Positions 5,432 to 58,121 of a stretch of 61,857 nucleotides of DNA are shown here, one piece after another. The DNA lies in the IMG/VR virus record IMGVR_UViG_3300047462_000177, one strand, 5' to 3'. Under the pieces are notes generated by a model. It did not search any database. It was not told the origin of the DNA and saw only the letters and a list, made by a program, of their open reading frames with translations. Source of the DNA: a virus. A program made the translations under genes and the position numbers. Every line of letters begins with the position of its first letter. The stretch's first letter is position 1.

Positions 5432-5827
<396 letters not shown>

Positions 5828-6242
5828 ATGCGTTGTCCTCTGCTATGAACTTGATTGGGGGTTCTTCGTCCACATCCGCGTTAGGGTAATTGTGATTGTG
5901 ATCGTACTCTTCGCGGTATTTGTCTGCTAGTTCCTGAAGTAGATCTTTTCTCCTGTCTCCCTTCTCTCCTTTCGATGGGCGTAGCATCTCCACCAGCTGT
6001 TGGAGCTCAGTGAAGACATGAGCATATTGCAAGATCCTTTCCTGAATTAGGCTCATAGCTTGTACTAATTCATGATTGACCTCATGCGTGGACCAGCGCT
6101 TGCCGCAACTTGGGCACTCTTTACGCCTTCTTCGTCCGTATTCATCTGGTCTGGTATCCTTTACTATGGCTCCCATCTCCAGACAATATGGGCACATGTC
6201 TCCCTGAGACATTTTCTTGTGCTGCTCCTGTTGTTACTTCTC

Positions 6243-20112: not shown

Positions 20113-20345
20113 TGAGTATCATGCCGGAACACCTCGTGAGCGCTGTTGACCGGGCCATAAAAGGCAATCCACATGCTATCAAGGCATGGAATGTTGTCCG
20201 AAAGGCCGTGATGTATGATAGGGAAGTCACACTTTCTGAGGCTCAGGACTTCTATGAGGCATTGGAATGTGCAGAAGCGCTCCCAAATAGGGCTATGACA
20301 GAGCTAGATGATGACCTTGTCATCGATTTAGCTCAGGTGGATTGA
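20109..20345 (+). CDS. hypothetical acidic protein
   Basis: 78-aa ORF with an ATGA-type overlap with TerL. Confidence 0.5.
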   Translation: MMSIMPEHLVSAVDRAIKGNPHAIKAWNVVRKAVMYDREVTLSEAQDFYEALECAEALPNRAMTELDDDLVIDLAQVD

Positions 20346-35981: not shown

Positions 35982-36586
35982 TGTCCCAAACAGAGACAGA
36001 TGAATCGCCGATCCCAATCACCTTGGTACCTACCCAAAAAGCCTTGGCTCTGATGCAGGGTGAAGCTGAAGCTGAAGCTGAAGCACGTGCGTTGGTCGTA
36101 GCTGAAGCCTTGACTTGGGATCAAACGCCTTATAGGCAGCAGGGATATGAGAAAGGGCCCAACGGTGCTGTTGATTGCTCTATGCTTCTTGTGGCTGCTT
36201 ACGTTGGCAGTGGTCTGGTGGAGGAATTCGATCCGAGACCGTACCCGCCTACTTGGTACCTACATCATTCAGAAGAGCGGTACCTTGCCTGGATGCAAAC
36301 CTTGGCAATCGAGGTTCAAACGGCTCAACCAGGAGACATCGCCCTCTTCAAGTTTGGGCGCTGCTTCTCCCATAGCGGGATCTTCACGCATAAACCAAAT
36401 CAGATTGTCCATGCGGCAGCTATAACAGGAAAGTGTACCTTAGGCGATCTCTCTGATCCTGAACTAAGGTATTTCGATAGGCGAGGCACTCAGTTAAGAC
36501 CTATGAAGATCTTCGACGTGTGGGCACACATCAAACAGATTGCCAACGGCAATAGCAATAGCATCAGCAACCAAGGTAATGTGTAA
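35978..36586 (+). CDS. NlpC/P60 cell-wall peptidase (GTA g14-like)
   Basis: Nucleophile block AVDCSMLLVAAY and His block FSHSGIF. The in-frame (gaagct)x4 repeat gives EAEAEAEA. Confidence 0.65.
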   Translation: MMSQTETDESPIPITLVPTQKALALMQGEAEAEAEARALVVAEALTWDQTPYRQQGYEKGPNGAVDCSMLLVAAYVGSGLVEEFDPRPYPPTWYLHHSEERYLAWMQTLAIEVQTAQPGDIALFKFGRCFSHSGIFTHKPNQIVHAAAITGKCTLGDLSDPELRYFDRRGTQLRPMKIFDVWAHIKQIANGNSNSISNQGNV

Positions 36587-39500
36587 TGGGTCTGTTTGGC
36601 AATGGTGGATCTGCTGCCCAAAAGATCACGCGATACACATCACTGGACATCCAGACATCTGCCTTAGGTGTATGCATCCCCTTGCTATGGGGCCGCAACC
36701 GAATTGGCTGCAACCTGATTTGGACTGGCAACTTCATATCGAAGCCCGTCTCTGGTAAAGGTGGCGGTAAGGGTGGCGGAGGTAAAGGTGGCGGCACATA
36801 TGACTACTGGTGTGCCTTAATTGCTGCCCTATGTGAGGGTACGATCCAGGATGTCCTACAATGCTGGCAAGACCAGCAATCGGAAAGCCTTAGCTACTGG
36901 AATCTAGGTCTAGTAACGGGCACTCAGAGCCAGGCCATACCTAGCTGGTTCACGTCAAACTTCCCCAGCCAGAGCCTGAGCTACGCAGGCACAGCGTATG
37001 TCTGGTCGCAGAAGTACTCACTAGGTGAGAGTGCTACGTTACCCAACCTTACTTTTGAGGTAGATGGCTATCTCTCTGGTACCTGCAGCATAGCAGGCAT
37101 CCCAGATGCTAACCCAGCAGACATTATCAATGACTACCTGACTAATTCTCTCTATGGCCTTGATCCAGGCGCTACTTACATTGACAGCACCTCTCTGAGC
37201 ACTTACAGGACCTACTGCCTAGCTCAAGCTCTCTTGCTGTCACCGTACCTCCGCACACAGGAACAGGCTACCCAAACGTTACAGAGATGGGCGCAGCTCA
37301 CCAATTCTTGGATCTTCTGGAATGGTGTGGAGATGAAATTTGTCCCTTTGGGGGACGCGACAATCACCAGCAACGGGGTGACCTATACTCCTAACCTAAC
37401 GCCCATCTACGCTCTGGATGAGAGTGACTTCATCCCCGATTCCAAAGATGGTCCCCTTGTAACAGTCACGCGTATTGACCCTGCTGATGGCTACAATCGC
37501 GTAGAGATCGACAACCGCAACCGGAACGATCTTTACAATACCGACCCCACATACTGGGAAGACTCTACCTCTGTCTCAACCTTTGGCCAGCTGCAGTCGC
37601 AGACTGTCACAGCAGACGAGGTGTGTGATCCTAATGTAGCTGCTATCATGGCCTCCTTGATAGGGCAGCGAAGCGTCTACATCAGGAACACCTATGAGTT
37701 CACGCTTGACTATTCCTACATCCTTCTTGAGCCAGGTGACATTGTTACCTTAACAGATTCCAATATCGGCATCATTACAACTCCTGTCAGGATTACTGAT
37801 GTTAGCGAGGATGACAAAGGCTATCTGAAATTCGGAGCTGAAGAATGCCCTGGAAGTGTCGGCATATCTAGTGCCCATCCAAAGCAATCAGTTACGAATA
37901 ATATCGTCAATACCCAAGTAGATCCTGGAGTAGTGAACCCTCCACTGATTATTGAGCCTCCTGTAAGCTTAACAGGTGGTGTACCTGAACTGTGGATTGG
38001 TGCTTCAGGAGGAGCTAATTGGGGCGGAGCACAGATCTGGGTATCGGCTGATGGTACCAACTATGCTTCTGTAGGACAGGTCACAAGCCCAATTATTCAA
38101 GGCACGCTATCAGCTTCTCTTGCTTTGCATGTCGACCCTGACAACTCCAACACGATATCCGTCAACCTAACGGAGAGTGATACTACCCTCCCAACCAGCT
38201 TCACCAGCGCTGACGCCAATGCCTATCGCACAGCATCTTTGATCGACAACGAGATCATATCCTTTGGCACCTCTACATCTACAGGTGCATTCACATACAA
38301 CCTTACAGGTTTACGTCGAGGGGTCTACAATACTACGCCTGCATCACATTCTACAGGAGCACAGTTCTACTGGATTAGCTCTGCTGATACGTTTACCTAT
38401 TCTCTGCCTCAGGCTTACGTAGGCACAACTCTCTACTTCAAGTTCCTGAGCTTCAACCAATTCGGCAATGCCCTTGAACAGCTGTCCGGCGTTAGCGCTT
38501 ACACTTATACGCCTACAGGTGTAGGTTATACCATAGCTCCTCCTACGTCGGCCTCTACTGCTGTCACTCGGACGACTCAGGCTGACGGTACTACTCTGCT
38601 GAACATGACTGTATCATGGACAGCCTCAACAGGTCCGAATCTGGCAGGCTACAATGTTAGCTGGTCAACAAATGGAGGCTCTACATATAGCACTCCTATC
38701 CAAGTAGGTTCAGCAGCTACATCTTACACATTGACACCAGCTGTAGCTTCAACCAATTACATCTTCCGTGTACAGGCTTATAGTCAGAACGGCCTTGCAC
38801 TATCTACCTACGCCACCGCCGCATCTGTATCCAGCGGGACTCTAGTTGCAAGTGTACCATCAGCACCAAGTGGCGTTACAGCTACAGCTGTGGGCACCCA
38901 AGCGCAGATTGCCTGGACATCAGGACCTCAGACCAATCTCTTCTACACTATCAGCCGAGCATCAGGTACTGGTGCTTCCTTCTCAAGTGCCTCCATCGTA
39001 GGCTATGGTGCTCAAGGATCCACCACGTTCCTCGACACTTCTACAAGTGCTTCTACTGCTTACACCTACTTTGTTCAAGCTTCCAATGCTGCGGGTACCT
39101 CAAGTGCCTCATCAGGGGTAAACTGCACTACAGGGACTGTAGCCACCTCGATAGTTGTTGAGGTTAACAACACCGTCGATGCTGTAGGCACCATCTCTTT
39201 CAACGCTGGGCTCCTTGGTACAGTGAGCTCGGGGACCTTGGAGCTGTCTGTCCCTACACAGCTAACACTGGAATCTCAAGGGACTACAGAGACCGCAAGC
39301 TTCCTCAACTTCGGGTCAAATCTCACTGCCACCTTGGCTAGTGGTACCCTGACTATTCAAGGTGCTCCACAGACCTACTTCGAGTCATCTGGCACCGTTG
39401 TCTCTGCTAACACACTCAACGTCTCATCGGGGCTCACAGCCTCAGTAGCCTCTGGTACTCTCACTCTGACCTCGGGCGGTGGAGGAGGTGGTGCGGGGAC

Positions 39501-40749
39501 ACTCGAACTATACCAGGGAGGCAGCTACACCCCATTCGGCACGCTCGTGGCGACCAACGGTGTGACGGCTGCCGTGTCGTCGGGGACCGCCACTCTCCAG
39601 GGACTATCCTACGCCAACCAGGGAACTTTGATCGGAGGCAGCACGGTCGCGGGCTCGACGTGGAACCCTTCCTACGTCGGGGGGTCGTCTACGCTCAGCG
39701 GAGGCAACCTGACGTTCAACGGCTCCAACACGGGCTCCTACAACTGGACAATGTGCATCGCCCAGTCCACGAACACTACAGGGGTCACAAAGTTCTATTG
39801 GGAAATCACCACAGGCTCCCAAACCGGCTCCAATACCATGATCGGCCTCGCCACCTACGGCGCGGCGCTGGGCGCCTGGATGGGCAGCAGCGACAGCAGC
39901 GGTATAGGATTCGAGGGCCAGGGGAGTGTGTGGTATGCCGGCAATGGGTCCTACGAGACTGGCATCACCTATGGCGCCAGCACCACCATCGGCATCGCCT
40001 GGGACGTCAATGCAGGCAAACTGTGGTTCAACATCGGGGGCTCCTGGGTCAGCGGCAACCCCGCGACAGGGACTGGGGGCAGTACGATGCCTGTGGTGGG
40101 AACCCCCCACCCTGCTGTGGCTGTCCTCGGGTCTGGGTCGAGTGCGACGGCCAACTTCGGCAGCTCGACCTTCGCCTACAGCGTCCCGACAGGCTTCACG
40201 GCCTACGGAGCAGCCAGCATCGCAGCAGTGAACCTATCGGAGATCAACTTCTCCACCAACCTGAGCGCTGTGCTCAGTGGCAGTACGCTCACCGTCACGG
40301 CTCCCCAGCAGCTGACGCTGGAGTCGGCTGGAACAGTCGTATCGGCTAGCACACTCAATGCGGGCACCGGAATCGCGATGAACTCGGGCGGCACGATCAC
40401 GACCGTTGGTCAACAACCCTTCGACCTTCTCGTGTTCAATCCGGGAACCCTCGCGTCCTCTCAGAAACTCGTGCGCGCCGTCATGGCTCGCCAAGTGGTG
40501 TTCCCCACGAACTTCTCAGGCTCCTACGTCGGCGCGGGCACGGCGGCAACCGCCTCCAACACGTTGACGATCTCGAACGGTGTCACTCAGGTCGGAAGCA
40601 TCGTCATCCCCGCATCTTCCTCGACAGGAACGATCTCCGTCGCGAGCGCCACCACGATCACGGCAGGCGGCACGCTTAACATCGTCAATCAGGCCACTGC
40701 GGACGTGACGCTTGCCGATCTCAGCTTGACCCTCACCGGAGTTCGTTAA
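36586..40749 (+). CDS. host-specificity / central tail fibre protein (J-like, GTA g15-like) with FN3 repeats and a C-terminal SPRY-like domain
   Basis: The N-terminus has SALGVCIPLLWGRNRIGCNLIW. Two FN3-like units are encoded at about 38520-39120. An SPRY-like block (FYWEI..IGIAWDVNAGKLWF..ANFGSSTFAYSVPTGF) is encoded at about 39700-40210. Confidence 0.8.
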   Translation: MGLFGNGGSAAQKITRYTSLDIQTSALGVCIPLLWGRNRIGCNLIWTGNFISKPVSGKGGGKGGGGKGGGTYDYWCALIAALCEGTIQDVLQCWQDQQSESLSYWNLGLVTGTQSQAIPSWFTSNFPSQSLSYAGTAYVWSQKYSLGESATLPNLTFEVDGYLSGTCSIAGIPDANPADIINDYLTNSLYGLDPGATYIDSTSLSTYRTYCLAQALLLSPYLRTQEQATQTLQRWAQLTNSWIFWNGVEMKFVPLGDATITSNGVTYTPNLTPIYALDESDFIPDSKDGPLVTVTRIDPADGYNRVEIDNRNRNDLYNTDPTYWEDSTSVSTFGQLQSQTVTADEVCDPNVAAIMASLIGQRSVYIRNTYEFTLDYSYILLEPGDIVTLTDSNIGIITTPVRITDVSEDDKGYLKFGAEECPGSVGISSAHPKQSVTNNIVNTQVDPGVVNPPLIIEPPVSLTGGVPELWIGASGGANWGGAQIWVSADGTNYASVGQVTSPIIQGTLSASLALHVDPDNSNTISVNLTESDTTLPTSFTSADANAYRTASLIDNEIISFGTSTSTGAFTYNLTGLRRGVYNTTPASHSTGAQFYWISSADTFTYSLPQAYVGTTLYFKFLSFNQFGNALEQLSGVSAYTYTPTGVGYTIAPPTSASTAVTRTTQADGTTLLNMTVSWTASTGPNLAGYNVSWSTNGGSTYSTPIQVGSAATSYTLTPAVASTNYIFRVQAYSQNGLALSTYATAASVSSGTLVASVPSAPSGVTATAVGTQAQIAWTSGPQTNLFYTISRASGTGASFSSASIVGYGAQGSTTFLDTSTSASTAYTYFVQASNAAGTSSASSGVNCTTGTVATSIVVEVNNTVDAVGTISFNAGLLGTVSSGTLELSVPTQLTLESQGTTETASFLNFGSNLTATLASGTLTIQGAPQTYFESSGTVVSANTLNVSSGLTASVASGTLTLTSGGGGGGAGTLELYQGGSYTPFGTLVATNGVTAAVSSGTATLQGLSYANQGTLIGGSTVAGSTWNPSYVGGSSTLSGGNLTFNGSNTGSYNWTMCIAQSTNTTGVTKFYWEITTGSQTGSNTMIGLATYGAALGAWMGSSDSSGIGFEGQGSVWYAGNGSYETGITYGASTTIGIAWDVNAGKLWFNIGGSWVSGNPATGTGGSTMPVVGTPHPAVAVLGSGSSATANFGSSTFAYSVPTGFTAYGAASIAAVNLSEINFSTNLSAVLSGSTLTVTAPQQLTLESAGTVVSASTLNAGTGIAMNSGGTITTVGQQPFDLLVFNPGTLASSQKLVRAVMARQVVFPTNFSGSYVGAGTAATASNTLTISNGVTQVGSIVIPASSSTGTISVASATTITAGGTLNIVNQATADVTLADLSLTLTGVR

Positions 40750-43969: not shown

Positions 43970-44539
43970 TCAAAACTGCTTTCCATGCTTCTGGGCTCGA
44001 GCTTCGAGGGTGTGGTCTTTACGCGATTGATTGTAGGCAAACTTAGCGGCATAAGCTTCACCAAGGCGTAGCTTGGCCGCTCTGGCAGTATCGAATAATC
44101 TGATGAGAACATCTGCGAGCTCCTCCTCCATAGCCGTGAACTCTGGAATCTTGTCGGACATCTGGTTGGTACGATGTCCTTCAAAGGCTTCGCTCAGTTC
44201 AGTGGTAATGAGCATCAGAAGTTCACCCACATTTCGTTCGACAGGCTTATGCTCTCCTGTCTCCTTGAAATGTTCGAGGTCTGACCACCAGCCCATAGCC
44301 ACGTTAGACACATGACACATCGCCATATGCTGGTCGATAGAATAGGCTGCTCCTCTGATGCTCATGTCATAGGCTAGATTGAGCTTGTAAGCCAGAGCAT
44401 CTTCACGTGTATACGCTGGACTAACTGTGTTAGGCATGGCTGATATTCCTTGGTGTACGTTAAACGGGAGGTCCGTGCAAGGGCGAAGCCTAGCGTTCCG
44501 CTGTTTTTTAGTTAGCCTGAATTGGTCGCCAGCGGCCAC
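43970..44539 (-). CDS. mazG: MazG-like nucleoside triphosphate pyrophosphohydrolase
   Basis: ELLMLITTELSEAFEGHR..EELADVLIRLFD contains the EExxE/D motifs. Confidence 0.75.
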   Translation of the reverse strand: MAAGDQFRLTKKQRNARLRPCTDLPFNVHQGISAMPNTVSPAYTREDALAYKLNLAYDMSIRGAAYSIDQHMAMCHVSNVAMGWWSDLEHFKETGEHKPVERNVGELLMLITTELSEAFEGHRTNQMSDKIPEFTAMEEELADVLIRLFDTARAAKLRLGEAYAAKFAYNQSRKDHTLEARAQKHGKQF

Positions 44540-44876: not shown

Positions 44877-47546
44877 TTATTCACTATCCGCATCTGCAAG
44901 CGGTACAAAACCAAACGCAGTGAGGCCGTCGGAGGGATCCCAGTCATTGTCAAGATCCTCCGTATCTCCTTCGTTGCTTGTTCCACCGTCACTGGGGAAG
45001 ATGATGGGTGGTTGTTGCAGCGTAGGCTTAGACGCCAGTAGGCTAGTGTTGCGTCGTAAATCGTTGAGTAGGTCAACAACCCTTTGTGAGGGCCTGAACC
45101 TGGTATCAGGGTCATTAGATTCTGGCTCATAGTTGTATGGCTCCTTGCGATAGATTCCCCAACGCTTACCTACGTCACCCTCAGCCTTGAATGGGACAGC
45201 TTTGAGACCCCATTCAGGAGCTATGGATTCCATGCATTGCTCTATGACCCACTTAGCCCACGCTATTACTTCTGGGATATCCGGACACTCGAACATAGCC
45301 TCATCGTGGACTGCATTCACCGGATAGATACCCCAGAAGTCTAGTATCTCTGCCGCCTTGGCTGCTCCTAGACCGCAGATCTCAGATGCAATGGATTGAT
45401 GAGGGAAATTGGATGCCTCATTCTGCAACGCGCTGAGATTCTCCCTTGTGACGATCATATGCCTTTTCTTGCGGCCAAAAGGTGTGACTAATGTAGTCCC
45501 TGTAATAGGAGCGGCTCGGCACCTATCGATGAATGCCTTTGCCTTAGGTGATCGCTTGAACCACCTGTCAATCCACTTCTGAGCTTCCTGCACTGGGAGC
45601 TTATACTCGTCCGCAAGGCTCTCCGCCGTACGGCCATACACGACGCCGAAGTTAACGGCTTTTGCACGGATAAGCTCCTCACCACCTTGATGGCTTTTCT
45701 TGCCCCCGCGTGCTTTCCAACCGGGATAGAATTCTTCAGCTGTTTCAGAATGCAGTGAGCGGGTGTTTGAACAATATACCTCGAGGAGATAGTCATCAAG
45801 GCTGGTACAAGCGAGAGATCTCAGCTCTGCCTGATTTAAGTCTACCTTGATAAACACATACCCAGGGGAGGCACAATACATTCCACGCAGTGCAGTATCT
45901 CGTGGGATGTTTTGCATATTCGGACCACGGCTACTGAGCCTACCCGTCCTGGTTCCGTGAATGAGATAGGTACTATGAACACGTCCGTCAACGTTGACAT
46001 TCTTCTTGAGAGAGTCGACATATGTGCTCTTTGCTTTCTGTGCTCTTCTGTAATCCTGCAATGCTGTCAGTACAGGGTGTTTGGGAAGGCTAGCCAGAAC
46101 TTCTTTACCAGTGCTGCGACTCCCAGCTCTGGGAGGTACGAACTTGAGGACGTCCCACAGGAGGTGTGCAAGCTGCTTAGGCGATCCTGGGTTAATATCA
46201 GTTCCACCAACTCTTCGAACAATTTCCTGGAGGCGTTTGTTAGCGTCCTCGATTCGTGCTTGTAGGACTCTTGCTTGCCGCTCAACTCTATTGGGACAGA
46301 CTGTGATGCCCCGCTTCTCGATCTTGTACAGGTACTCTGATGCTGTGAGGAGAACACGGGTGTAAAGGGTATCCAGTCGGCTATCAGATCGCACCTGTTC
46401 TCTAAGCGGATTAAATATCTGCCTGGTGTTAGATGTATCAAGGGCGAGGTAGTGGTAAAGAATGTGTCGAGGAATGACTCGATAAGAGGTGCTCCTCCTG
46501 GGTAGATACGGCTTAAGCATGTGCTTGTAATCAGGTGCCCCAATAAGGTCTCCTGATACCTGCTCCAAGTCATGGATACCTCCTACCTCATCTAAGGTAT
46601 AGCTGAGCAGCATCGTGTCTTCATCAACCCTACTGTGAGGGGTAATATGATGGCGCATGAAGCGCATATCAAATTTGCCATTATGCCAAATGAATTGGGG
46701 ACCTTTATTGATGAAGATCTCCGCTGTCGTAGTAGGATATCTACTGGCAACCTCACCAGGTATGATGTACACCTCTTCGGGGTCTGCACATAAACCTATG
46801 GCAAGGACTTCATCTGTCAGGTGATTGAAACCTGCAGTCTCCGTATCAGCTGCAATGTATGGCTTATCTTTGAGCGTGTTGTAGATCTCCCAGAGGTCAT
46901 CTTCTGTGTCTGCAATGTACCAAGTAGGGACTATTGGCTTCTTGGGAGGTGTACCACGTAGGAGATCAAAAGCATAGGTGAGATCATTTCGGAATTGTCT
47001 GTAGTTTCCCGTACCCCTTAAGAGTGCAGCTGGATGGACGATGGGGAGTACCCCAATACTTGCATGTGGCGATTGTACGAGCATACCACGTACCTGGGTG
47101 ATCTTCAGGTTTGAGTTACCTAACACCACACGTGATGCATGGTTCCCCATAGTCACGATCACTTTCCGAGGATGTCGTGTCAACTGAGAGAATAACCTTG
47201 AGCGGCATACATCTGCTCCTGTTGACACTAAGGCTGTGTTCTTCTTGGCATCCTTAGTGGATGGTGGGCGGCACTGCAAAGTGTTTAGCACTAAGATGTC
47301 GTTCTCAGGGGAGATCCCCCAAGACCTTAACTCAGTTGGGAGTGATCGCCAGAACAGGTCACCAGATGGGCCCGTTAAAGCCCACCTACTGTTCAGCTCT
47401 TGGATACCAGGGGCCTCACCTACAAAGACAATCGGAGCCTCAGGATTCCCTCTGCTGCCGCATTTAGGTCCCCCGTACGGACAAGATGGGCATGCTCCTA
47501 GGTTGCTGGGGTGGTTCGGTTTCGGCCCTGCTAACAATCCACCCAT
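44877..47546 (-). CDS. DNA polymerase I family A with 3'-5' exonuclease and an N-terminal family-4 UDG-like domain
   Basis: UDG block: CPSCPYGGPKCGS..FVGEAPG..LNTLQCRPP. Exo I: ADTETAGF. Pol motif A: DLNQAELR. Motif B: RAKAVNFGVVYG. Motif C: VHDEAMFE. Confidence 0.85.
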   Translation of the reverse strand: MGGLLAGPKPNHPSNLGACPSCPYGGPKCGSRGNPEAPIVFVGEAPGIQELNSRWALTGPSGDLFWRSLPTELRSWGISPENDILVLNTLQCRPPSTKDAKKNTALVSTGADVCRSRLFSQLTRHPRKVIVTMGNHASRVVLGNSNLKITQVRGMLVQSPHASIGVLPIVHPAALLRGTGNYRQFRNDLTYAFDLLRGTPPKKPIVPTWYIADTEDDLWEIYNTLKDKPYIAADTETAGFNHLTDEVLAIGLCADPEEVYIIPGEVASRYPTTTAEIFINKGPQFIWHNGKFDMRFMRHHITPHSRVDEDTMLLSYTLDEVGGIHDLEQVSGDLIGAPDYKHMLKPYLPRRSTSYRVIPRHILYHYLALDTSNTRQIFNPLREQVRSDSRLDTLYTRVLLTASEYLYKIEKRGITVCPNRVERQARVLQARIEDANKRLQEIVRRVGGTDINPGSPKQLAHLLWDVLKFVPPRAGSRSTGKEVLASLPKHPVLTALQDYRRAQKAKSTYVDSLKKNVNVDGRVHSTYLIHGTRTGRLSSRGPNMQNIPRDTALRGMYCASPGYVFIKVDLNQAELRSLACTSLDDYLLEVYCSNTRSLHSETAEEFYPGWKARGGKKSHQGGEELIRAKAVNFGVVYGRTAESLADEYKLPVQEAQKWIDRWFKRSPKAKAFIDRCRAAPITGTTLVTPFGRKKRHMIVTRENLSALQNEASNFPHQSIASEICGLGAAKAAEILDFWGIYPVNAVHDEAMFECPDIPEVIAWAKWVIEQCMESIAPEWGLKAVPFKAEGDVGKRWGIYRKEPYNYEPESNDPDTRFRPSQRVVDLLNDLRRNTSLLASKPTLQQPPIIFPSDGGTSNEGDTEDLDNDWDPSDGLTAFGFVPLADADSE

Positions 47547-47571: not shown

Positions 47572-47823
47572 TTACCTATCGAACTTAGCTTGCTTCAGGC
47601 TTTGGATGCTGTTGGAGACCTCACCCATTCGGGCTTCCTGTCGATGTACCTCTTCATGGGATAGGGTTCCCATGGCAATGAACTTGTTGATCATCGCACC
47701 GAGTACCTGCTCCATGGTCTCGAGGATACCTGTCATCTGCAGTATGAGTATTTCCTGTTGAGCTAGGTCTTTCTTGACCTTATTCAGTTCATCCAACGTA
47801 GCGTAGCCGATGACTTCGATCAT
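47572..47823 (-). CDS. hypothetical coiled-coil protein
   Basis: 83-aa ORF between the DpdA-like gene and PolA. Confidence 0.5.
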   Translation of the reverse strand: MIEVIGYATLDELNKVKKDLAQQEILILQMTGILETMEQVLGAMINKFIAMGTLSHEEVHRQEARMGEVSNSIQSLKQAKFDR

Positions 47824-47824
47824 G

Positions 47825-48622
47825 TTAGATCTCCAGGATCCAATTACGGATCAGTGAAAGGTTGGCAATAGTTTCAGACGTGATGACACTTGGGACATCT
47901 TCCCACCAGGTCTTACCCCTCTTGCTGTGCGGCCCTAGAGGGTGCCTGTACATAAGTCTCCTTTCTTGTCCTTCTCTGATAGGTGCGGCACTGTCGATAC
48001 CCATCACACCGAGCTTCTTGGCACAGGTGATATCATCCTGGAAGTTGTCTGAGAACCCCAAGAGGTGAATGAATCTTTCATGTGCCCCGAACTCTTTACG
48101 CATGGTAACGTAAAGCCAGTTCAGGAAATCTTTTCGAGTTCCCAGCATGTCGGTGACGAAGCGACCGACGCCCCAGTACTCCACACCGGGCATGTGTGAG
48201 AGCTCCCAGGCACACTCCCTTAACTCTGCCAAGGTGTTGCCTTGAGGTACAGCCATGAACTTTTGACCCCGAGCTAGATAGGGTTCATAGGTGTTGGCAT
48301 ACTCGCAAGCCAGTTCGATTGTCTTGTCCTTGTTACGTATGACGTCAGGTAGGACAATAATCTGAGCCTCTACAATGTTGAGAGCCTTATGCATGACGTC
48401 AGGCTCGACAGGATACCCAAGTTCAATGATCGAGTTATCCATGATGACCAGAGAGTTAGGTGGAAGCAAACCCCTGTAGCTTGTTGGATTCGCTGCCACA
48501 TCATGTGCCAGAAGCAGATGATATGATCCCGCGATACCTACACCCCAAGACTTGAGGGCGCCTAGAACATGGGGAGGGCATACAGGAGCATACCTCGGAA
48601 AGTTAGGAATCTGTATGGACAT
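47825..48622 (-). CDS. dpdA: DpdA-like DNA-guanine transglycosylase (TGT superfamily)
   Basis: Blocks VIMDNSIIELG, AVPQG, IHLLGF and GIDSAAPI, plus synteny with folE-queE-queD-queC. Confidence 0.65.
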   Translation of the reverse strand: MSIQIPNFPRYAPVCPPHVLGALKSWGVGIAGSYHLLLAHDVAANPTSYRGLLPPNSLVIMDNSIIELGYPVEPDVMHKALNIVEAQIIVLPDVIRNKDKTIELACEYANTYEPYLARGQKFMAVPQGNTLAELRECAWELSHMPGVEYWGVGRFVTDMLGTRKDFLNWLYVTMRKEFGAHERFIHLLGFSDNFQDDITCAKKLGVMGIDSAAPIREGQERRLMYRHPLGPHSKRGKTWWEDVPSVITSETIANLSLIRNWILEI

Positions 48623-48896
48623 GCCCTTGTGCCGCCTTCTCTTCTTTACGCATTTCAGGTTTGGTCATGGTCTGGGTCTGGGTCTCATGCTTGTCGGCTA
48701 TGTCGAGCATCTCCAGATGCTTCTTGTCGACGATGGAGAACCTGGCATTGATGGCGAGGTCGGAATTATCCATTGCAATCTGGTGGTGATGCAATGTGAC
48801 AACGCCTGCCTCTAGAAGGTCGGCTACATGCCTAAGCCAACCTTGGACATTGAAGACAGGCAGTGCTCTGAGAGCACTCCTCTGGTTTGGAGTCAT
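48603..48896 (-). CDS. hypothetical protein embedded in the deazaguanine cluster
   Basis: 97-aa ORF that overlaps the dpdA-like start by 20 nt. Confidence 0.45.
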   Translation of the reverse strand: MTPNQRSALRALPVFNVQGWLRHVADLLEAGVVTLHHHQIAMDNSDLAINARFSIVDKKHLEMLDIADKHETQTQTMTKPEMRKEEKAAQGHVHTDS

Positions 48897-48920
48897 AGAG
48901 TCTTGCCTTTATTGTGTCTT

Positions 48921-49658
48921 CTACTTGATGCCGGCTACGGCAAAGAATTCCGATCGTGCTGATGGCACATCTCGGAAGAGTCCTCGCACGCAAGATGTGG
49001 AGGTCAGGGTGTCAGGAGTATACACACCTCGACAGGCCATACAGGTATGTAGGCTCTTGATCACTGTTATAGTTCCGTTGGCATCTGTGTAGTCATGTAG
49101 TACGTCTGTTATCTCTTCGCAGAAGATTTCCTGCATGCCTGGACGTGATGTACCAACTGCTTGTACAAGGCGGGCAATCTTGGAGAGGCCGACAACTTTG
49201 CCCCTAGGTATATAACCAACGCAAGCGTGACCCACAGCAGGAAGAAGGTGATGTTCACAGATCATCCTAAAAGGTATGTTGCTTTGTACGATGACGCCTC
49301 CGATGTTCTCAGCCTTAGTTCCCTCGAAGAGGTCTCCTAAGACATCCTTCGGAGTGTAAGGCTTGTTGAACTCAGCTAGGTACTTGAGGAACCTCAGAGG
49401 TGTCTTAGCTTGCGCATCATCAGATTCCCAACCATACATGATGTTCAGCACATGAGCCATGGCATCTACAGCTATCTGCTTCACGCCAGGTACAGGCTCG
49501 TAGTCCGGATTGAGCCCGTCGGCTTCGGCTTCGGCTTCGGCTTCGGCTTCGAGTTCAGTTGGAATGGGAGCTACAGGTGTTGGCTTTCCTTTTTTCCTGT
49601 ATCTGTGGTGACTATTGAAAGCCTGTGCAGGTGTTATCTTACTTGAGGATTTACGCAT
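48921..49658 (-). CDS. folE: GTP cyclohydrolase I
   Basis: ICEHHLLPAVGHACVGYIP..VVGLSKIARLV. The N-terminal extension contains (EA)x5, encoded by (cggctt)x5 at 49520-49549. Confidence 0.85.
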   Translation of the reverse strand: MRKSSSKITPAQAFNSHHRYRKKGKPTPVAPIPTELEAEAEAEAEADGLNPDYEPVPGVKQIAVDAMAHVLNIMYGWESDDAQAKTPLRFLKYLAEFNKPYTPKDVLGDLFEGTKAENIGGVIVQSNIPFRMICEHHLLPAVGHACVGYIPRGKVVGLSKIARLVQAVGTSRPGMQEIFCEEITDVLHDYTDANGTITVIKSLHTCMACRGVYTPDTLTSTSCVRGLFRDVPSARSEFFAVAGIK

Positions 49659-49663
49659 ATCTG

Positions 49664-50431
49664 TTAGACTCCCAACTTGTGACCATACAGCATGGCGTGC
49701 ATTTGCGGAAGGATGGAGACATTAGCAAGGCCATACTTCTGAGCCTCTTCGATCAGCCAGCGATACCTGGTAAGGATCTTGCTAGCTAACACATCACTGT
49801 CAGTCTCGCCGTTATTCTGTGTACCTACTGACAGGAAGAAGTTGACCCTAGGATAGTCAGCATGTAGTTGAGTTGCCCACTCAAGATCTTCAAGATCCAT
49901 TATCACCACCTTGAGGCTAATGCGAGGGGGTGCAATGAGAGATGAGTAGGCTGAGAGCATGTCGCGGTCAAGTTTCTCAGCCATGCCACTGCTTGGTGGC
50001 TTGGGAGAGACTGTGACACTATCGCAGTTGATAAGCCACTGCTTGAAGAACTGCCCCTGTGTCTCGATGGCTACCCGAAAGCCCTCATAGTGAAGTCTAT
50101 CGATCAGCGGTGAGAGCTCATACATCACAGGATCACCACCAGAGATAGTTACCCACTTGGCTCCAGTGTGGGGGCTTCCAAGTTGCAAGAGGGCATCCGT
50201 GATCTGAGTAACTGCTAGGCGCTTGGCGTTCTTCTTCACCTCTTCAGGGAGGACTGCGTGGAGGCTGTCACACCAGTCACACCTGTACCCGCATCCTCCC
50301 AGACGTAGGAAATGGGTAACACGGCCTATCATTGCTCCCTCACCCTGAATAACAGGACCAAATATCTCAATGACAGGCAGCCGTTTGTCTTCGGCTATGT
50401 ACTCGTAAGATACTTTAGCATCGGTAGTCAT
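49664..50431 (-). CDS. queE: 7-carboxy-7-deazaguanine synthase (radical SAM)
   Basis: VIQGEGAMIGRVTHFLRLGGCGYRCDWCDS. Confidence 0.85.
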   Translation of the reverse strand: MTTDAKVSYEYIAEDKRLPVIEIFGPVIQGEGAMIGRVTHFLRLGGCGYRCDWCDSLHAVLPEEVKKNAKRLAVTQITDALLQLGSPHTGAKWVTISGGDPVMYELSPLIDRLHYEGFRVAIETQGQFFKQWLINCDSVTVSPKPPSSGMAEKLDRDMLSAYSSLIAPPRISLKVVIMDLEDLEWATQLHADYPRVNFFLSVGTQNNGETDSDVLASKILTRYRWLIEEAQKYGLANVSILPQMHAMLYGHKLGV

Positions 50432-50952
50432 TGTGGGTACCTCGCAGAGCAGTTAGGTGTCTCGAAGACCTCGACCTCACTCAGCTCTGCAAGGCCTTGA
50501 CTCAGCTCATGGACTCTATCTACCATCAGCTTAAACCAGAACTCTGCAAGGCGTTCAGCTGTAGGAATGAAAGGCACAACGAGAACCTTTGTCTGATTTC
50601 TGTCGCGGTTTTCGTTTACTAGGCAGTAGATCATGGGTTCCCGCTTCACTGTGTGGATAACCATGTCACGGTACTGTTTAGCTGGTATCATGACATGCAG
50701 TAGTGGATCATCAACCCATACCACAGTTCCATGATCACATAGGTCATCACAGTACTCCATCATGACATGCTTGAGGAAGCCGAAGTCTAGAACCATATCA
50801 GTCTGGAATCCTTCTCTGTGTAGTTCTGATGACTTGCACGTGGCATTGATCGTGTATCGATGTCCATGCCAGTTCCAGCACTTCGAGCCATGTGTAGGCA
50901 CACGATGACCAACATCGATGCCTATTTGTCTCGTAATCGAAAAGCCTCCCAT
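50428..50952 (-). CDS. queD: 6-carboxy-5,6,7,8-tetrahydropterin synthase
   Basis: GHRVPTHGSKCWNWHGHRY (H..C..HGH). Confidence 0.8.
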   Translation of the reverse strand: MGGFSITRQIGIDVGHRVPTHGSKCWNWHGHRYTINATCKSSELHREGFQTDMVLDFGFLKHVMMEYCDDLCDHGTVVWVDDPLLHVMIPAKQYRDMVIHTVKREPMIYCLVNENRDRNQTKVLVVPFIPTAERLAEFWFKLMVDRVHELSQGLAELSEVEVFETPNCSARYPQ

Positions 50953-50979
50953 CGTATCAACCTTTCTCCTCGAATTTGA

Positions 50980-51837
50980 TTAGAATGGTATGGTATCATT
51001 TCCCATGTCTGTGCCGTGATCTGGTTTGAGCCCTCGCTGGACAAAGGCTTTTGGCTCATCAACCATGTAATCTGGGGCTGGTGTTGTATAAGTACCGTGA
51101 AGTGATCCGTGAGACACTAGGAGACCATCTTCATATGTGGTAGGATCCGGTAGTTGCGCTAGCTGGAAGGCTTCTTTGCGAGCACGGCATGTAGGGCAAG
51201 TGCCGCAGTGTTTCTCTTTCCCGTCATAGCAGCTCCACGTTAGATCGTAAGGCAGTCCCAACTTGGAGCCAATCTCGACGATAGACTTCTTCTCCATATG
51301 GGTGAATGGGGTGATGAGCCTCACGCGACGATAGGTGCCGAGGTGGATAGCAGACGCCATGACACCTATGAACTCGGGGGTACAGTCTGGATAGGCATCT
51401 CGAGCTGCATCATCAGCATGGGCGCCGAACCAGATAGAGGCTTTTGCGTTGATCCCCAGCTTATCTTGTTCCATGATCCAGCCCTGTGCAATGCCTGCGA
51501 TTCGTGACAGAAGCTGTCCATTCCTGAAGGGAACGTACGTAGGCGAGATGCCTTCTGGCAACTCAGCATAAGTCGAACTTGGAAGCTTGATACTTGGATC
51601 TGTGAGCATGCTCTTCGGTGGATATGCCATCGAGACTGTCTCATGGCTGACACCGAAGAAGTCACAGAGTTTCTGTGCGAACTCCGTTTCTTTCTTGTGT
51701 CTTTGTCCGTAGTCGACAGAGATGCTCACGACATCATGCCAGATACCCTCTGAATAAGCTTCAGCTCTCGCCATAGCAAGGGCTGTCGAACTATCAACAC
51801 CCCCACTATGTAAAACGAATGACCGGTGCAAATCCAT
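50980..51837 (-). CDS. queC: 7-cyano-7-deazaguanine synthase with a C-terminal extension of about 55 aa
   Basis: VLHSGGVDSSTAL PP-loop and the zinc site CYDGKEKHCGTCPTCRARKEAF. Confidence 0.85.
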   Translation of the reverse strand: MDLHRSFVLHSGGVDSSTALAMARAEAYSEGIWHDVVSISVDYGQRHKKETEFAQKLCDFFGVSHETVSMAYPPKSMLTDPSIKLPSSTYAELPEGISPTYVPFRNGQLLSRIAGIAQGWIMEQDKLGINAKASIWFGAHADDAARDAYPDCTPEFIGVMASAIHLGTYRRVRLITPFTHMEKKSIVEIGSKLGLPYDLTWSCYDGKEKHCGTCPTCRARKEAFQLAQLPDPTTYEDGLLVSHGSLHGTYTTPAPDYMVDEPKAFVQRGLKPDHGTDMGNDTIPF

Positions 51838-52059: not shown

Positions 52060-52593
52060 TTAGACGCCTGCGAAGGCGCCACCGCCACCAGCTGCAGCTC
52101 CTGCAGGACCAGGAGGCAGGACATCTTTGACATCGTTGCCTTTCTTGCCCTGGTAGACACGGATATCCAGTCGCACCTTGGCTCGTGCCCCGAGTAGGCG
52201 CCCTTCGTCGGCGACTGTCTGGGGATTGAACTTCTGGTTCAGCAACGCCTGTGGGTAGCCGTCGTCAGTCTGAATCCGAGCAAGAGTACGCTTGACACGA
52301 GGCAGACCGCCTTCATTGAAGACGGTATGGTAGAACAGCTTGCGGCCGTTGAACTCACCTCCATCAACTTCGAATACCCATGTCCACATGGGGTTGTTCG
52401 ACCTCTGACTCTTGCCGAAGTCCAGTTGGACCACGGTGACGTCATACAGGCCACGAGGCATGGCAACAAAGTTACCCTCCTCGTTGACGCCACCGAGGTC
52501 TACGACAATGCCATTGCCGTCTTCAGTCTCGACGTTGGCATCATCAGCTTCGGCAGTACCCGCAGCTTCAGCAAATGCGTTAGACATAGTCAT
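52060..52593 (-). CDS. DUF669-type single-stranded DNA-binding protein
   Basis: MPRGLYDVTVVQLDFGKSQRSNNPMWTWVFEV..GRKLFYH, plus synteny with the AAA_24 and Cas4-like genes. Confidence 0.6.
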   Translation of the reverse strand: MTMSNAFAEAAGTAEADDANVETEDGNGIVVDLGGVNEEGNFVAMPRGLYDVTVVQLDFGKSQRSNNPMWTWVFEVDGGEFNGRKLFYHTVFNEGGLPRVKRTLARIQTDDGYPQALLNQKFNPQTVADEGRLLGARAKVRLDIRVYQGKKGNDVKDVLPPGPAGAAAGGGGAFAGV

Positions 52594-52670
52594 CCTCCTT
52601 ATTGCAGTACCAGTACAGTGTCGTACTTGTTAACGGTCTGCATTAGGTTGCACAACCTTAGAAGGCTACA

Positions 52671-53759
52671 TCAGGTGGCCGGTGCTAATGTAGACTTTGC
52701 CACAGTCACTGGTGTGGCTCCTGACTTAGGCACTTCGCCCAACAACCCGACTTGCTTCAGGATTGACCCCATTGTCGGATTGTCGAAATAGTGGGGCTTG
52801 TACACGCTGAACCTCGACTTGGCTGCGTAGCGTGGCCCTTGTTGGATGTACATCCTCCTGGGAGGCGTTGTCTGATCATCAGCTGCCTGACCAATGATGA
52901 GATAGCCTACCATATCCATGAAGCCTTGAACTTGACTTCCAAGTTTGCCGGTCATCATAGGAGAATAGATCTGCCTCTTCAGCTCGTCCTGAACATACGC
53001 TCTCGCGGCGGTGAAGAGCACATGCATCGGGAGATCTCTAAAGTTGCGGATGAGGCGCTGCACCATCATGTGCTGCTGCCTGTATTGAGCCCACTCGGCG
53101 GCAGAACTCTCCTCGTCAATCTTCGTGGCGTCATTGACGCCGAGAAGCTGATTCATGCAATAGACTTCTACTTCGGTGAGAGAGTCTATGATGACCGTCT
53201 TGTATCTCCGCAGACGCTCTTCAGGTGCGTTAGGCATGATCACGTTCTGTAGGTTGCGAAGCTTCTGTTCTGCCTCTGGCGATGGGTCATCTCTGAACTG
53301 GCAATGGAGTTTCAGGTAGTCATAGACTCGGGCAACTGTAGCATAGTTACTTACGCGCACAGGATCGATGAGATGGAACTGATGATCAGGATCATAGAGT
53401 GTCAGTTCGCCACCTTCCGCGCTGATCATAATGACATCCCGCATCTCAGCGACATCTGCTGATGTACCGAAGAGCCAGGTCTTGCCTGCACCATACTCGC
53501 CATAGACCAAAGCCTTCAAGTAAGGCAGCCTAGGTCGATTGACGGGTACAATGAAGGGTGCCTTCCCTGCAACAGGTGACATAGGCGTAGCAGTGGACCC
53601 AGATGGGCTCCCTGGCTGGATCCCTCCAGCACCAGCACTAGCTGTGTGTGTGGTGCCTGTAGTTACCGACGGCGTCTTAGGTGGCGTGTCGGGGGTAGGA
53701 AGAGTTGTGTTGCTGGTTGTATATAGTCTTGTAGCGGTACTTGTAGGTGTCGTCGCCAT
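52671..53759 (-). CDS. AAA_24 / Sak4-like RecA-fold ATPase with a Thr/Pro-rich N-terminal extension
   Basis: Walker A YGEYGAGKT. The alternative ATG at 53582 would remove the 97-nt overlap with the upstream gene. Confidence 0.7.
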   Translation of the reverse strand: MATTPTSTATRLYTTSNTTLPTPDTPPKTPSVTTGTTHTASAGAGGIQPGSPSGSTATPMSPVAGKAPFIVPVNRPRLPYLKALVYGEYGAGKTWLFGTSADVAEMRDVIMISAEGGELTLYDPDHQFHLIDPVRVSNYATVARVYDYLKLHCQFRDDPSPEAEQKLRNLQNVIMPNAPEERLRRYKTVIIDSLTEVEVYCMNQLLGVNDATKIDEESSAAEWAQYRQQHMMVQRLIRNFRDLPMHVLFTAARAYVQDELKRQIYSPMMTGKLGSQVQGFMDMVGYLIIGQAADDQTTPPRRMYIQQGPRYAAKSRFSVYKPHYFDNPTMGSILKQVGLLGEVPKSGATPVTVAKSTLAPAT

Positions 53760-56578: not shown

Positions 56579-57520
56579 TCACATGTCCTCCTTGTGACGC
56601 CAGCCTACGAAGACTGGATGTCTTGCAACCTTATCTGTGCCATGTGGTAGGAACTTATACTTGAGGATCCTCCCCATGTAGTTCTGGGGGTTCATCCAGA
56701 TCTCTCGGCGCTCATCATGATTAAAGCCGCTGCCTACTCTGACTTCCCACCCATACTTAAGATCATTGATGATGACCCTACCCATCATGGCTAAGCCACT
56801 CTTGTTCTCCTTATGCGACGAACGCACCTGATAGCCTCTAGCATCAACCGTCGCTGGGTTGTCGTTATGTAGCATCTCCTCGAAGCCAGTGACAACACCT
56901 TCAGCGTCCTCCCAACGCTTGAGTTTACCCATCCCCCCTTCTTTTTCCGTTGAGCGGCCAAACTTGTAGTTGCTAGTGGGGGATCTAACAATAAGACCCT
57001 CATAGCCTTTCTCAACAGCAGCCTGCTCTAAGCTGATGAGGTCAGGCAGGCATTCGATCCTGAACTGTTCAACAGGCACTAATCTAAAACTTGTATGGTA
57101 CAGTACCTTTGCATCTCGGGCTTTGTCATAGAGGAACTTCTGACGCTCCTCGAATGTCATCTCATTCCTGACGATGTCGAAGGCATGGAACCAAGGGATA
57201 ACCGAGGCATCCGTTGTCATGATGCCTGACACAGTTCTCTTGAAGACATCATTGCCTGTTGGTAGGCCAATGATGAGTTCGCCATCAACCCCCTCTAATT
57301 GTGGGATGGCAAACAGTTCTTGTGCTCGTTGGCTCCTGATGAGCTTGCCCGACCGAGAGATCAGCTGCCCATTCATAACCGTAGCCCGGATACCATCTAG
57401 CTTGTAGCTAGCATAGATCCTCTTATGGAACTGTAGGAGTCTCTCAAAGATCCTGAGATCCCCATCATACGCCAACATAGGCCGAAAAGGTTTAATGTTC
57501 ACGTTCACGTTCTCATGCAT
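56579..57520 (-). CDS. ATP-dependent DNA ligase
   Basis: Adenylation motif SYKLDGIR (KxDG), EGLIVR, and an OB-fold region of appropriate size. Confidence 0.85.
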   Translation of the reverse strand: MHENVNVNIKPFRPMLAYDGDLRIFERLLQFHKRIYASYKLDGIRATVMNGQLISRSGKLIRSQRAQELFAIPQLEGVDGELIIGLPTGNDVFKRTVSGIMTTDASVIPWFHAFDIVRNEMTFEERQKFLYDKARDAKVLYHTSFRLVPVEQFRIECLPDLISLEQAAVEKGYEGLIVRSPTSNYKFGRSTEKEGGMGKLKRWEDAEGVVTGFEEMLHNDNPATVDARGYQVRSSHKENKSGLAMMGRVIINDLKYGWEVRVGSGFNHDERREIWMNPQNYMGRILKYKFLPHGTDKVARHPVFVGWRHKEDM

Positions 57521-58121
57521 CTTTTAGGTCTTTCACCTTTGTGCCGTCATTGTCTTTGTCGTTTTTGTTGAGCATCAGGCTATACCAAGTACCTGCTTTC
57601 ATTAGCCTGGCACGAAGGCTTTGGTACGACATACCTAACTCACGTGCTAGAGTAGCAGCCGGGATCCTCTTGCCTGTCTTGGGGTGCAGTACGTAGTGTG
57701 TGCATCGCTTGTTGCTACCCTGCTCTTCATAGGTTGCCCATCTGACATTACCAGGGACATAATGGCCATTAGGATCAATTCTGTCAAGAGTATGATTCCT
57801 ACTAGGACGTAAGCCGACATCTTTCAGGAACCACTCAAAAGCCTGTAGCTTCGTAGGACCTAGATCACTATGAGGATCATCTGCGTGGGTAGGCTGCCAG
57901 CGATCAAACACATGTATGCCTCGCCCACCATACTCGGCATAGCCCACGTGTTTAGGATTGTTGCACCGCTCAAGCATCATGGAGAAGGAATTGTAAGATA
58001 GCCTACGCAAGAAGCATCCACGATCGGCTTCCTTTTTCTTCCGGTTAGGTCTTTTGTGTATCTTCCTCTTGCGAGGCTTGCCCTTCACCAGATGCTCGTT
58101 GGTGGTCTTGTCGTCATCCAT
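57513..58121 (-). CDS. HNH homing-endonuclease-like protein
   Basis: SFSMMLERCNNPKHVGYAEYGGRGIHVFDRW, then LDRIDPNGHYVPGNVRWATYEEQGSNKR, then a C-terminal HTH IPAATLARELGMSYQSL. Confidence 0.7.
   Translation of the reverse strand: MDDDKTTNEHLVKGKPRKRKIHKRPNRKKKEADRGCFLRRLSYNSFSMMLERCNNPKHVGYAEYGGRGIHVFDRWQPTHADDPHSDLGPTKLQAFEWFLKDVGLRPSRNHTLDRIDPNGHYVPGNVRWATYEEQGSNKRCTHYVLHPKTGKRIPAATLARELGMSYQSLRARLMKAGTWYSLMLNKNDKDNDGTKVKDLKDA

Follow-up and report, generated by a model that had tools for sequence, protein, structure and literature searches.

A predicted 7-deazaguanine DNA-modification module with a divergent DpdA3-type enzyme beside the DNA polymerase of an environmental phage

A preQ0 gene cluster in a phage replication region

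The IMG/VR record IMGVR_UViG_3300047462_000177 (61,857 nucleotides (nt); we refer to the whole of this stretch as the window) is the genome of a tailed phage, with genes for a terminase (18106-20112), a portal (20342-22069) and a tail protein (36586-40749). Between positions 51837 and 47572, on the minus strand, it carries QueC, QueD, QueE, FolE, a small open reading frame (ORF97), a protein of 265 amino acids (aa) and a second small open reading frame (ORF83), followed by the DNA polymerase gene PolA. An earlier, sequence-only reading of this stretch had proposed that the four named enzymes make 7-cyano-7-deazaguanine (preQ0) and that the 265-aa protein, as a short tRNA-guanine transglycosylase (TGT)/DpdA-type enzyme, inserts a 7-deazaguanine base into DNA. 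All seven open reading frames (ORFs) are present on the minus strand at the coordinates it had assigned to them, and the spacing between the module genes ranges from -20 to +27 nt. The module and its neighbours are as follows.

50980..51837, minus strand: QueC, 7-cyano-7-deazaguanine synthase, 285 aa (Pfam, PHROG, PP-loop SGGVDS, four-cysteine zinc site)
50980..51129, minus strand: unconserved C-terminal extension of QueC, approximately residues 236-285 (comparison with four related QueCs)
50428..50952, minus strand: QueD, 6-carboxytetrahydropterin synthase, 174 aa (Pfam PTPS, phrog_2389)
49664..50431, minus strand: QueE, radical S-adenosylmethionine (SAM) 7-carboxy-7-deazaguanine synthase, 255 aa (TIGR03365, phrog_2076)
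48921..49658, minus strand: FolE, GTP cyclohydrolase I, 245 aa (Pfam GTP_cyclohydroI)
48603..48896, minus strand: ORF97, small lineage-restricted protein with a 20-nt overlap with the next gene (few homologs)
47825..48622, minus strand: candidate DpdA3-type 7-deazaguanine transglycosylase, 265 aa, single (beta/alpha)8 barrel (AlphaFold2, Foldseek, hhalign)
47572..47823, minus strand: ORF83, small near-orphan protein (one homolog)
44877..47546, minus strand: PolA, family A DNA polymerase with N-terminal UDG-superfamily and 3'-5' exonuclease domains (Pfam DNA_pol_A 1.4e-64, UDG 2e-20)
43970..44539, minus strand: MazG-like nucleotide pyrophosphatase, two genes downstream of PolA (phrog_5658 4.9e-40)
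52060..53759, minus strand: DUF669 and AAA_24 proteins, conserved neighbours upstream of the module (Pfam DUF669 4e-06, AAA_24 8.9e-22)

The four preQ0 enzymes named by the sequence-only reading are borne out by Pfam, PHROG and NCBIfam matches, and the motifs it had quoted for them can be read in the translations with one correction. FolE matches Pfam GTP_cyclohydroI (5.5e-40), is named GTP cyclohydrolase in PHROGs and contains CEHHLLP, and QueD matches Pfam PTPS (2.2e-24) and the QueD-like phrog_2389 (7.9e-31), its H..C..HGH motif taking the form CWNWHGH. QueE carries the triad CGYRCDWCDS and matches phrog_2076 (1.3e-34) as well as NCBIfam TIGR03365 (2.5e-72), where its 243 bits lie above the curated equivalog cutoff of 206. 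QueC matches Pfam QueC (8.6e-49) and phrog_1550 (1.1e-51) and has the SGGVDS PP-loop, and its score against NCBIfam TIGR00364 (134.5 bits) falls under the equivalog cutoff of 150.3. The correction concerns its zinc site, which has the expected four cysteines but not the strict CxxC..CxxC spacing, the actual arrangement being C-x7-C-x2-C-x2-C (WSCYDGKEKHCGTCPTC). Since FolE, QueD, QueE and QueC all match their families, the full GTP-to-preQ0 route is encoded in the window.

The public JGI gene call for QueC (264 aa) falls 21 aa short of our 285-aa call (window 51772-51837, minus strand), as it would with a start at Met22; that start would remove the SGGVDS PP-loop and, if it is what was called, is probably wrong. 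FolE has an N-terminal extension of ~60 aa with an (EA)5 repeat before its GTP cyclohydrolase I domain (window 49480-49658, minus strand), and the FolE proteins of relatives are also long (243-266 aa).

Because the genes are tightly spaced and promoter and terminator consensus sites between 43000 and 53000 are not more numerous than in shuffled sequence, the block looks like one transcription unit, a conclusion with which the site scan is consistent but which it does not prove. The best reading is that the module is transcribed within the phage replication operon.

Fold and family placement of the 265-aa protein

The sequence-only reading had recognised the 265-aa protein by its DNSIIE, VPQG, HLLG and IDSAAP blocks; all four are found, and residues within them that are invariant among 53 homologs mark them as genuine family signatures. 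These homologs, from which we built the family alignment and profile, were taken from 294 related proteins returned by a word-indexed search, none of which has a Pfam domain. In the 53-sequence alignment, 26 positions do not vary (including D62, N63, E67, D93, Q127, G128, H186, G189, D210, S211 and P214), grouped in the blocks YHLLLAHD, DNSxIELG, LPD, PQG, HLLGFSxxxxDD and GIDSAxP, and its invariant columns hold no conserved Cys/His cluster, the feature of a TGT-type zinc site being absent from the family. Against Pfam and PHROGs the 265-aa protein has no match at E 0.01, and the TGT model (PF01702) matches just two of the 53 members, at E 0.16 or worse.

The family is large. Searched against 1.84 billion representatives, its profile has matches in 4,744 of the 50%-identity clusters at E<=1e-3 and in 3,499 at <=1e-10. 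It is also essentially viral, since a scan of one genome per species, covering 185,579 species, gave a single match. This match (L091 8001-8774) lies on a 59-kb contig, JALTVI010000070.1, that was binned to a Sulfurovum metagenome-assembled genome and that is probably a phage contig and not bacterial DNA.

Modelled by AlphaFold2 from the 53-sequence alignment, the protein forms a barrel of eight alternating strands and helices (predicted local distance difference test (pLDDT) 94.3, predicted template modelling score (pTM) 0.91), and the best 50 Foldseek matches in the Protein Data Bank (PDB) are all TGTs (E ~2e-7, probability 1.00, TM-score ~0.6). The sequence-only reading had named failure to model as a TIM barrel as grounds for giving up its assignment; because the model is such a barrel and all of the best 50 PDB matches are TGTs, that assignment is upheld. 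Among predicted viral structures (BFVD), where annotated phage TGTs also match, third place goes to a protein of Cellulophaga phage phiST, M4SLA5 (259 aa, E 2e-11, TM-score 0.70/0.71), which from its length and its label 'uncharacterized protein' is taken to be CGPG_00065, the founding protein of the DpdA3 subfamily described by Hutinet et al. (PMC10516641).

Sequence comparisons lead to the same protein. hhalign aligns the 53-sequence family with the phiST DpdA3 at 97.4% (E 1.5e-11, 218 columns), and the family hidden Markov model (HMM) scores it at 48.7 bits and the Chryseobacterium MA9V-3 relative at 51.9 bits. A chain of BLASTP matches connects the window protein to Brevundimonas phage MaInes (32% identity), Weizmannia phage Youna2 to phiST (24.5% over 220 aa, E 3e-12) and Bacillus phage BSP7 to phiST (E 3e-11). 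Because the structure match, hhalign, the family HMM and the BLASTP chain all reach the phiST DpdA3, we file the 265-aa protein as a divergent member of DpdA3, and as neither a DpdA4 nor a new subfamily. Membership in DpdA4 (DUF6610, PF20314) was rejected on an hhalign probability of 0.4% to the DpdA4 founder, HVTV-1 gp69, and on a DUF6610 score of 12.8 bits (E 0.094) where the cutoff is 27; 21 of the 53 family members match this model weakly (best E 2.3e-4), all of them below the cutoff.

In an alignment to E. coli TGT to which hhalign gives a probability of only 0.9%, D93, Q127-G128, HLLG and D210 fall onto FDEC, IQG, YLMG and FDCVMPTR. By analogy with TGT, D93 and D210 would serve in base recognition and as the nucleophile.

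Conserved gene order, target and final base

The cluster has no megablast match among 50,697 phage records, and only three GenBank phage records hold a tblastn-detectable relative of the 265-aa protein, each annotated as hypothetical. In MaInes and Youna2 the DpdA3-like gene lies between the preQ0 genes and PolA, and BSP7 has the same layout. In a census of 77 related IMG/VR loci (local phmmer; gene losses fall mostly on short contigs), PolA is present in 76, FolE and QueE in 70 each, QueC in 61 and QueD in 60. The order AAA_24, DUF669, QueC, QueD, QueE, FolE, DpdA3-like gene, PolA is near-universal, with its AAA_24-DUF669-QueC part found in ~50 of the 77. PolA is co-oriented with and downstream of the DpdA3-like gene in 76 loci, at a gap of <200 nt in most and usually directly adjoining.

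This setting bears on whether the enzyme acts on DNA at all. As has been proposed for phages with preQ0 genes but no recognised DpdA (PMC6884629), the module could raise the supply of the host's queuosine precursor and the TGT-like protein could modify tRNA to tune translation, and the fold is indeed that of a tRNA-modifying enzyme. However, at 265 aa the protein lacks a conserved cysteine cluster and the C-terminal portion found in E. coli TGT (375 aa), and nothing in it matches the TGT zinc site; its gene is part of the replication module and adjoins PolA in all but one of the loci; and the phages that encode its closest characterised relatives have fully modified DNA. We consider an RNA target highly improbable.

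Several relatives differ in detail from the window. In MaInes (L001 14960-16780) and in 8 of the 77 loci, FolE is located downstream of PolA, beside a gene for an XPRT-like phosphoribosyltransferase and sometimes a deoxynucleoside monophosphate (dNMP) kinase; the XPRT-like gene and the kinase could recycle excised guanine to GTP for further preQ0. BSP7 (L092 6899-7687) and Youna2 (L002 7932-8702), both Firmicute phages, have extra conserved small genes in the cluster that are absent from the window, in the QueC-QueD gap, in the QueE-FolE gap and just upstream of the DpdA3-like gene. At ~50%, the G+C content of the Brevundimonas phages MaInes and StAshley is below the 59-63% of other siphoviruses of the same host, and contigs of an 'ssDNA virome' were mapped to these double-stranded DNA phages (PMC10070969), a possible cause being an effect of DNA modification on library preparation. 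The papers describing the cultured relatives make no mention of deazaguanine.

ORF97 is a genuine gene of narrow distribution, with homologs in the same slot between FolE and DpdA only in L011 (65%), L006/L014 (42%), L013 and L023, that is, in four other contigs, and a search of 5.8 billion proteins returned only itself and one homolog. ORF83 has its sole homolog in L013 (E 3.4e-6) and is a one-member cluster in a 15-billion-protein collection. Neither has a family match in Pfam, PHROGs or NCBIfam. AlphaFold2, given a two-sequence alignment, models ORF97 as a helix-hairpin-helix (pLDDT 64), and the best Foldseek match (E 0.6) is a vague winged-helix-like resemblance on which we do not rely. 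Because most family loci have neither gene, ORF97 and ORF83 are not core parts of the system. The C-terminal tail of QueC, put at about 55 aa by the sequence-only reading, does exist and measures ~50 aa (residues 236-285); it is missing in four related QueCs, one of them 72% identical, all of which end at a conserved DPT.Y motif, and as an unconserved extension unique to this contig it was rejected as a functional domain. The idea that this tail and the two small ORFs hint at a further-tailored base finds no support, as the tail is unconserved, the ORFs are rare and the DpdA-like gene mostly lies directly against PolA.

What base is made depends on the enzymes that follow QueC. In agreement with the sequence-only reading, Pfam, run on the seven ORFs of the cluster and on 30 others in the window, shows no recognisable QueF, ArcS or Gat-QueC, nor does it show a methyltransferase, formyltransferase or amidotransferase; DpdM and DpdN are likewise not found by Pfam in these 37 ORFs, although no dedicated seed search was made for them. 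QueF and DpdL seeds match in none of the 77 related loci, which also hold no Gat-QueC fusion, all QueC ORFs being <=313 aa. Because no QueF, DpdL, ArcS, Gat-QueC or transferase was found, the product should, going by gene content, be 2'-deoxy-preQ0 (dPreQ0), or the deoxynucleoside of 7-amido-7-deazaguanine (ADG), dADG, if QueC stops halfway or the nitrile is hydrated.

Taken as a whole, the locus is likely to be a 7-deazaguanine DNA-hypermodification module in which guanine is replaced after replication by preQ0, or possibly ADG, through a DpdA3-type enzyme. FolE, QueD, QueE and QueC would convert GTP by way of 7,8-dihydroneopterin triphosphate (H2NTP), 6-carboxytetrahydropterin (CPH4), 7-carboxy-7-deazaguanine (CDG) and ADG to the free base preQ0. 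The predicted DpdA3 enzyme, short, zinc-less and of TGT fold, would then take guanine out of the double-stranded phage DNA and put the 7-deazaguanine base in, and DNA modified in this way would be shielded from restriction enzymes. The analysis itself establishes what the genes are, the fold, the family assignment and the conserved order of the genes, whereas the activity of the enzyme, the base it inserts, how much G is replaced and the post-replicative timing are inferred. In the DpdA3 phages CP220, phiST and vB_FspM_immuto_2-6A all G is replaced (PMC10516641), and because these three analysed phages do so, extensive replacement of G may plausibly occur in this phage too. Palindrome avoidance in the window is mild (observed/expected 0.90 for 4-mers and 0.95 for 6-mers) and uninformative on protection.

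A number of points weigh against such a module. Sequence features cannot demonstrate modified virion DNA. Sequence-only searches provide no link from the 265-aa protein to TGT or DpdA: there is no Pfam TGT match, its score against the NCBIfam DpdA model (NF041059) is 12.5 bits where the cutoff is 200, the family profile returned no TGT from the PDB sequences, and phmmer against the PDB likewise gave chance matches only. The alignment that maps the catalytic aspartates (D93 and D210 to TGT Asp143 and Asp264, E. coli numbering) is the one of just 0.9% hhalign probability. A nucleotide-pool route, too, would be compatible with two genes of this genome, those for the MazG-like pyrophosphatase and for a thymidylate-kinase-like protein. 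The base cannot be read off from gene content, as Pantoea phage MED16 carries dADG (PMC8306585), and the authors of DpdA3 doubted that it uses preQ0, since phiST and the Campylobacter phages are without the full pathway; their own heterologous tests of DpdA3 failed, and no DpdA3 enzyme is yet known to work in vitro or in E. coli (PMC10516641).

A first alternative is that the same module makes a different DNA base, either dADG, through release of the amide by QueC or hydration of the nitrile by an unrecognised enzyme, or a base tailored by ORF97, ORF83 or another ORF. The sub-cutoff NCBIfam score of QueC is in keeping with this, as are the dADG of MED16 and that of the Campylobacter DpdA3 phages, for which a QueC homologue has been proposed as ADG synthase (PMC10516641), and the position of ORF97 is kept in four related contigs. 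However, the QueC core is well conserved with PP-loop and zinc site intact, its tail occurs in this contig alone, and ORF97 and ORF83 are missing in most of the 77 loci, with no enzyme fold or family detected for either. We regard a base other than dPreQ0 arising in one of these ways as rather unlikely.

A second possibility concerns timing. In a pre- or co-replicative route the base swap by the DpdA3-like protein would take place on a deoxyguanosine nucleotide and not on DNA; the MazG-like enzyme, together with a kinase, would remodel the pool, and the modified triphosphate would be built into DNA by PolA. Such a route would explain complete replacement, and it fits the location of the DpdA3-like gene directly upstream of, and co-oriented with, PolA. 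The MazG-like protein, which might deplete dGTP, is encoded in the window and in 14 of the 77 loci (it is kept after PolA in L004-L006), and a MazG/dUTPase-like gene lies beside the DpdA3 of phiST; the window also encodes the thymidylate-kinase-like protein, some relatives have a dNMP kinase and an XPRT-like gene, and the cytoplasm of cells infected by CP220 reportedly contains the ADG nucleoside (PMC10516641). On the other hand, the published view is one of post-replicative insertion, the MazG-like gene is missing in most family loci, and the adjacency to PolA may reflect co-expression only. MazG and kinase genes are moreover common in phage replication modules and, to our knowledge, the characterised members of the TGT/DpdA superfamily all act on a polynucleotide. 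A search of the literature turned up nothing relevant to a route at the nucleotide level or before replication, and we judge this route improbable. A related and broader suggestion, which we put forward as quite doubtful, is that the DpdA3-like clade beside PolA, with its MazG-like gene in some members, works with the replisome or on the nucleotide pool, and not as a free DNA transglycosylase acting after replication, to achieve complete dPreQ0 replacement, and that ORF97-type proteins could be lineage-specific adaptors. In the literature surveyed, such genome-wide replacement of G is reported for dADG, for the deoxynucleoside of 7-deazaguanine (dDG) and for that of 7-(formylamino)methyl-7-deazaguanine (fdPreQ1), and not for dPreQ0.

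Elsewhere in the genome, the contig ends (1-29 and 61829-61857) share a 29-nt overlap within a TGTTGC/TGTTGT repeat, a sign that the assembly may be circular and the genome complete, with the junction in a repetitive coding stretch. No UDG-superfamily domain like that at the N-terminus of the window's PolA (PF03167 2e-20) is seen in PolA from L006 and L012, both close relatives. Further genes of the early and replication regions encode an NrdR-like zinc-ribbon protein (PF22811 2.3e-10; 5733-6212, minus strand) and an HNH endonuclease (phrog_3377 2.5e-32; 57513-58121, minus strand).

Scope and likeness to known systems

Phage 7-deazaguanine DNA modification is an established anti-restriction strategy, to which the window adds a member and not a principle. 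The gain is one of scope, namely a very large and almost unannotated environmental phage lineage, whose family is without a Pfam or PHROG model and is labelled hypothetical even in cultured phages. Its fixed arrangement, in which the preQ0 pathway is complete, QueF is absent and PolA adjoins, is a combination that the authors of DpdA3, a subfamily named in 2023 (PMC10516641), thought unlikely, and their doubt that DpdA3 uses preQ0 finds a natural test in this clade, whose QueC is intact and in which no downstream enzymes were found. For the isolates MaInes, StAshley, Youna2 and BSP7 the prediction is DNA with dPreQ0 or dADG, possibly at all G. A profile of the family would let annotation pipelines flag such genomes, the DNA of which may resist restriction and some library-preparation enzymes.

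The closest known system is the DpdA3 of phiST, which like the window protein is short (~260 aa; 259 compared with 265), zinc-less and of TGT fold, and is encoded between 7-deazaguanine synthesis genes and a polymerase, with a MazG-like gene nearby; the identity between the two is only 21-24%. In contrast to published DpdA3 systems, the window clade has the full FolE-QueD-QueE-QueC set without DpdL, QueF or DpdN and a fixed order with PolA, and its predicted base, dPreQ0, is the one thought unlikely for DpdA3. The literature surveyed contains no DNA base analysis for any member of the window clade.

DpdA1 systems resemble the window in combining the four-enzyme preQ0 pathway with a phage DNA transglycosylase and in their anti-restriction logic. 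Replacement by DpdA1 is partial: Escherichia phage CAjan, with the same predicted product as the window, has dPreQ0 at ~32% of G, and Enterobacteria phage 9g has 2'-deoxyarchaeosine (dG+). DpdA1 proteins are recognised by TGT/DpdA sequence models, whereas the window protein is not. The DpdA4/DUF6610 protein of Halovirus HVTV-1, gp69, is again a distant TGT-like protein beside preQ0 genes in which VPxG, HLLG and IDS-like motifs recur, but it is 386 aa long compared with 265 aa, and its virus also has QueF, which was not found in the window. Finally, the window protein shares with bacterial TGT (PF01702) the barrel fold (TM-score ~0.6) and, in the low-probability alignment, acidic and QG motifs at equivalent positions; it differs in being ~110 residues shorter, in having ~12-13% identity and no sequence-level match, and in a gene context of DNA replication and not of tRNA modification.

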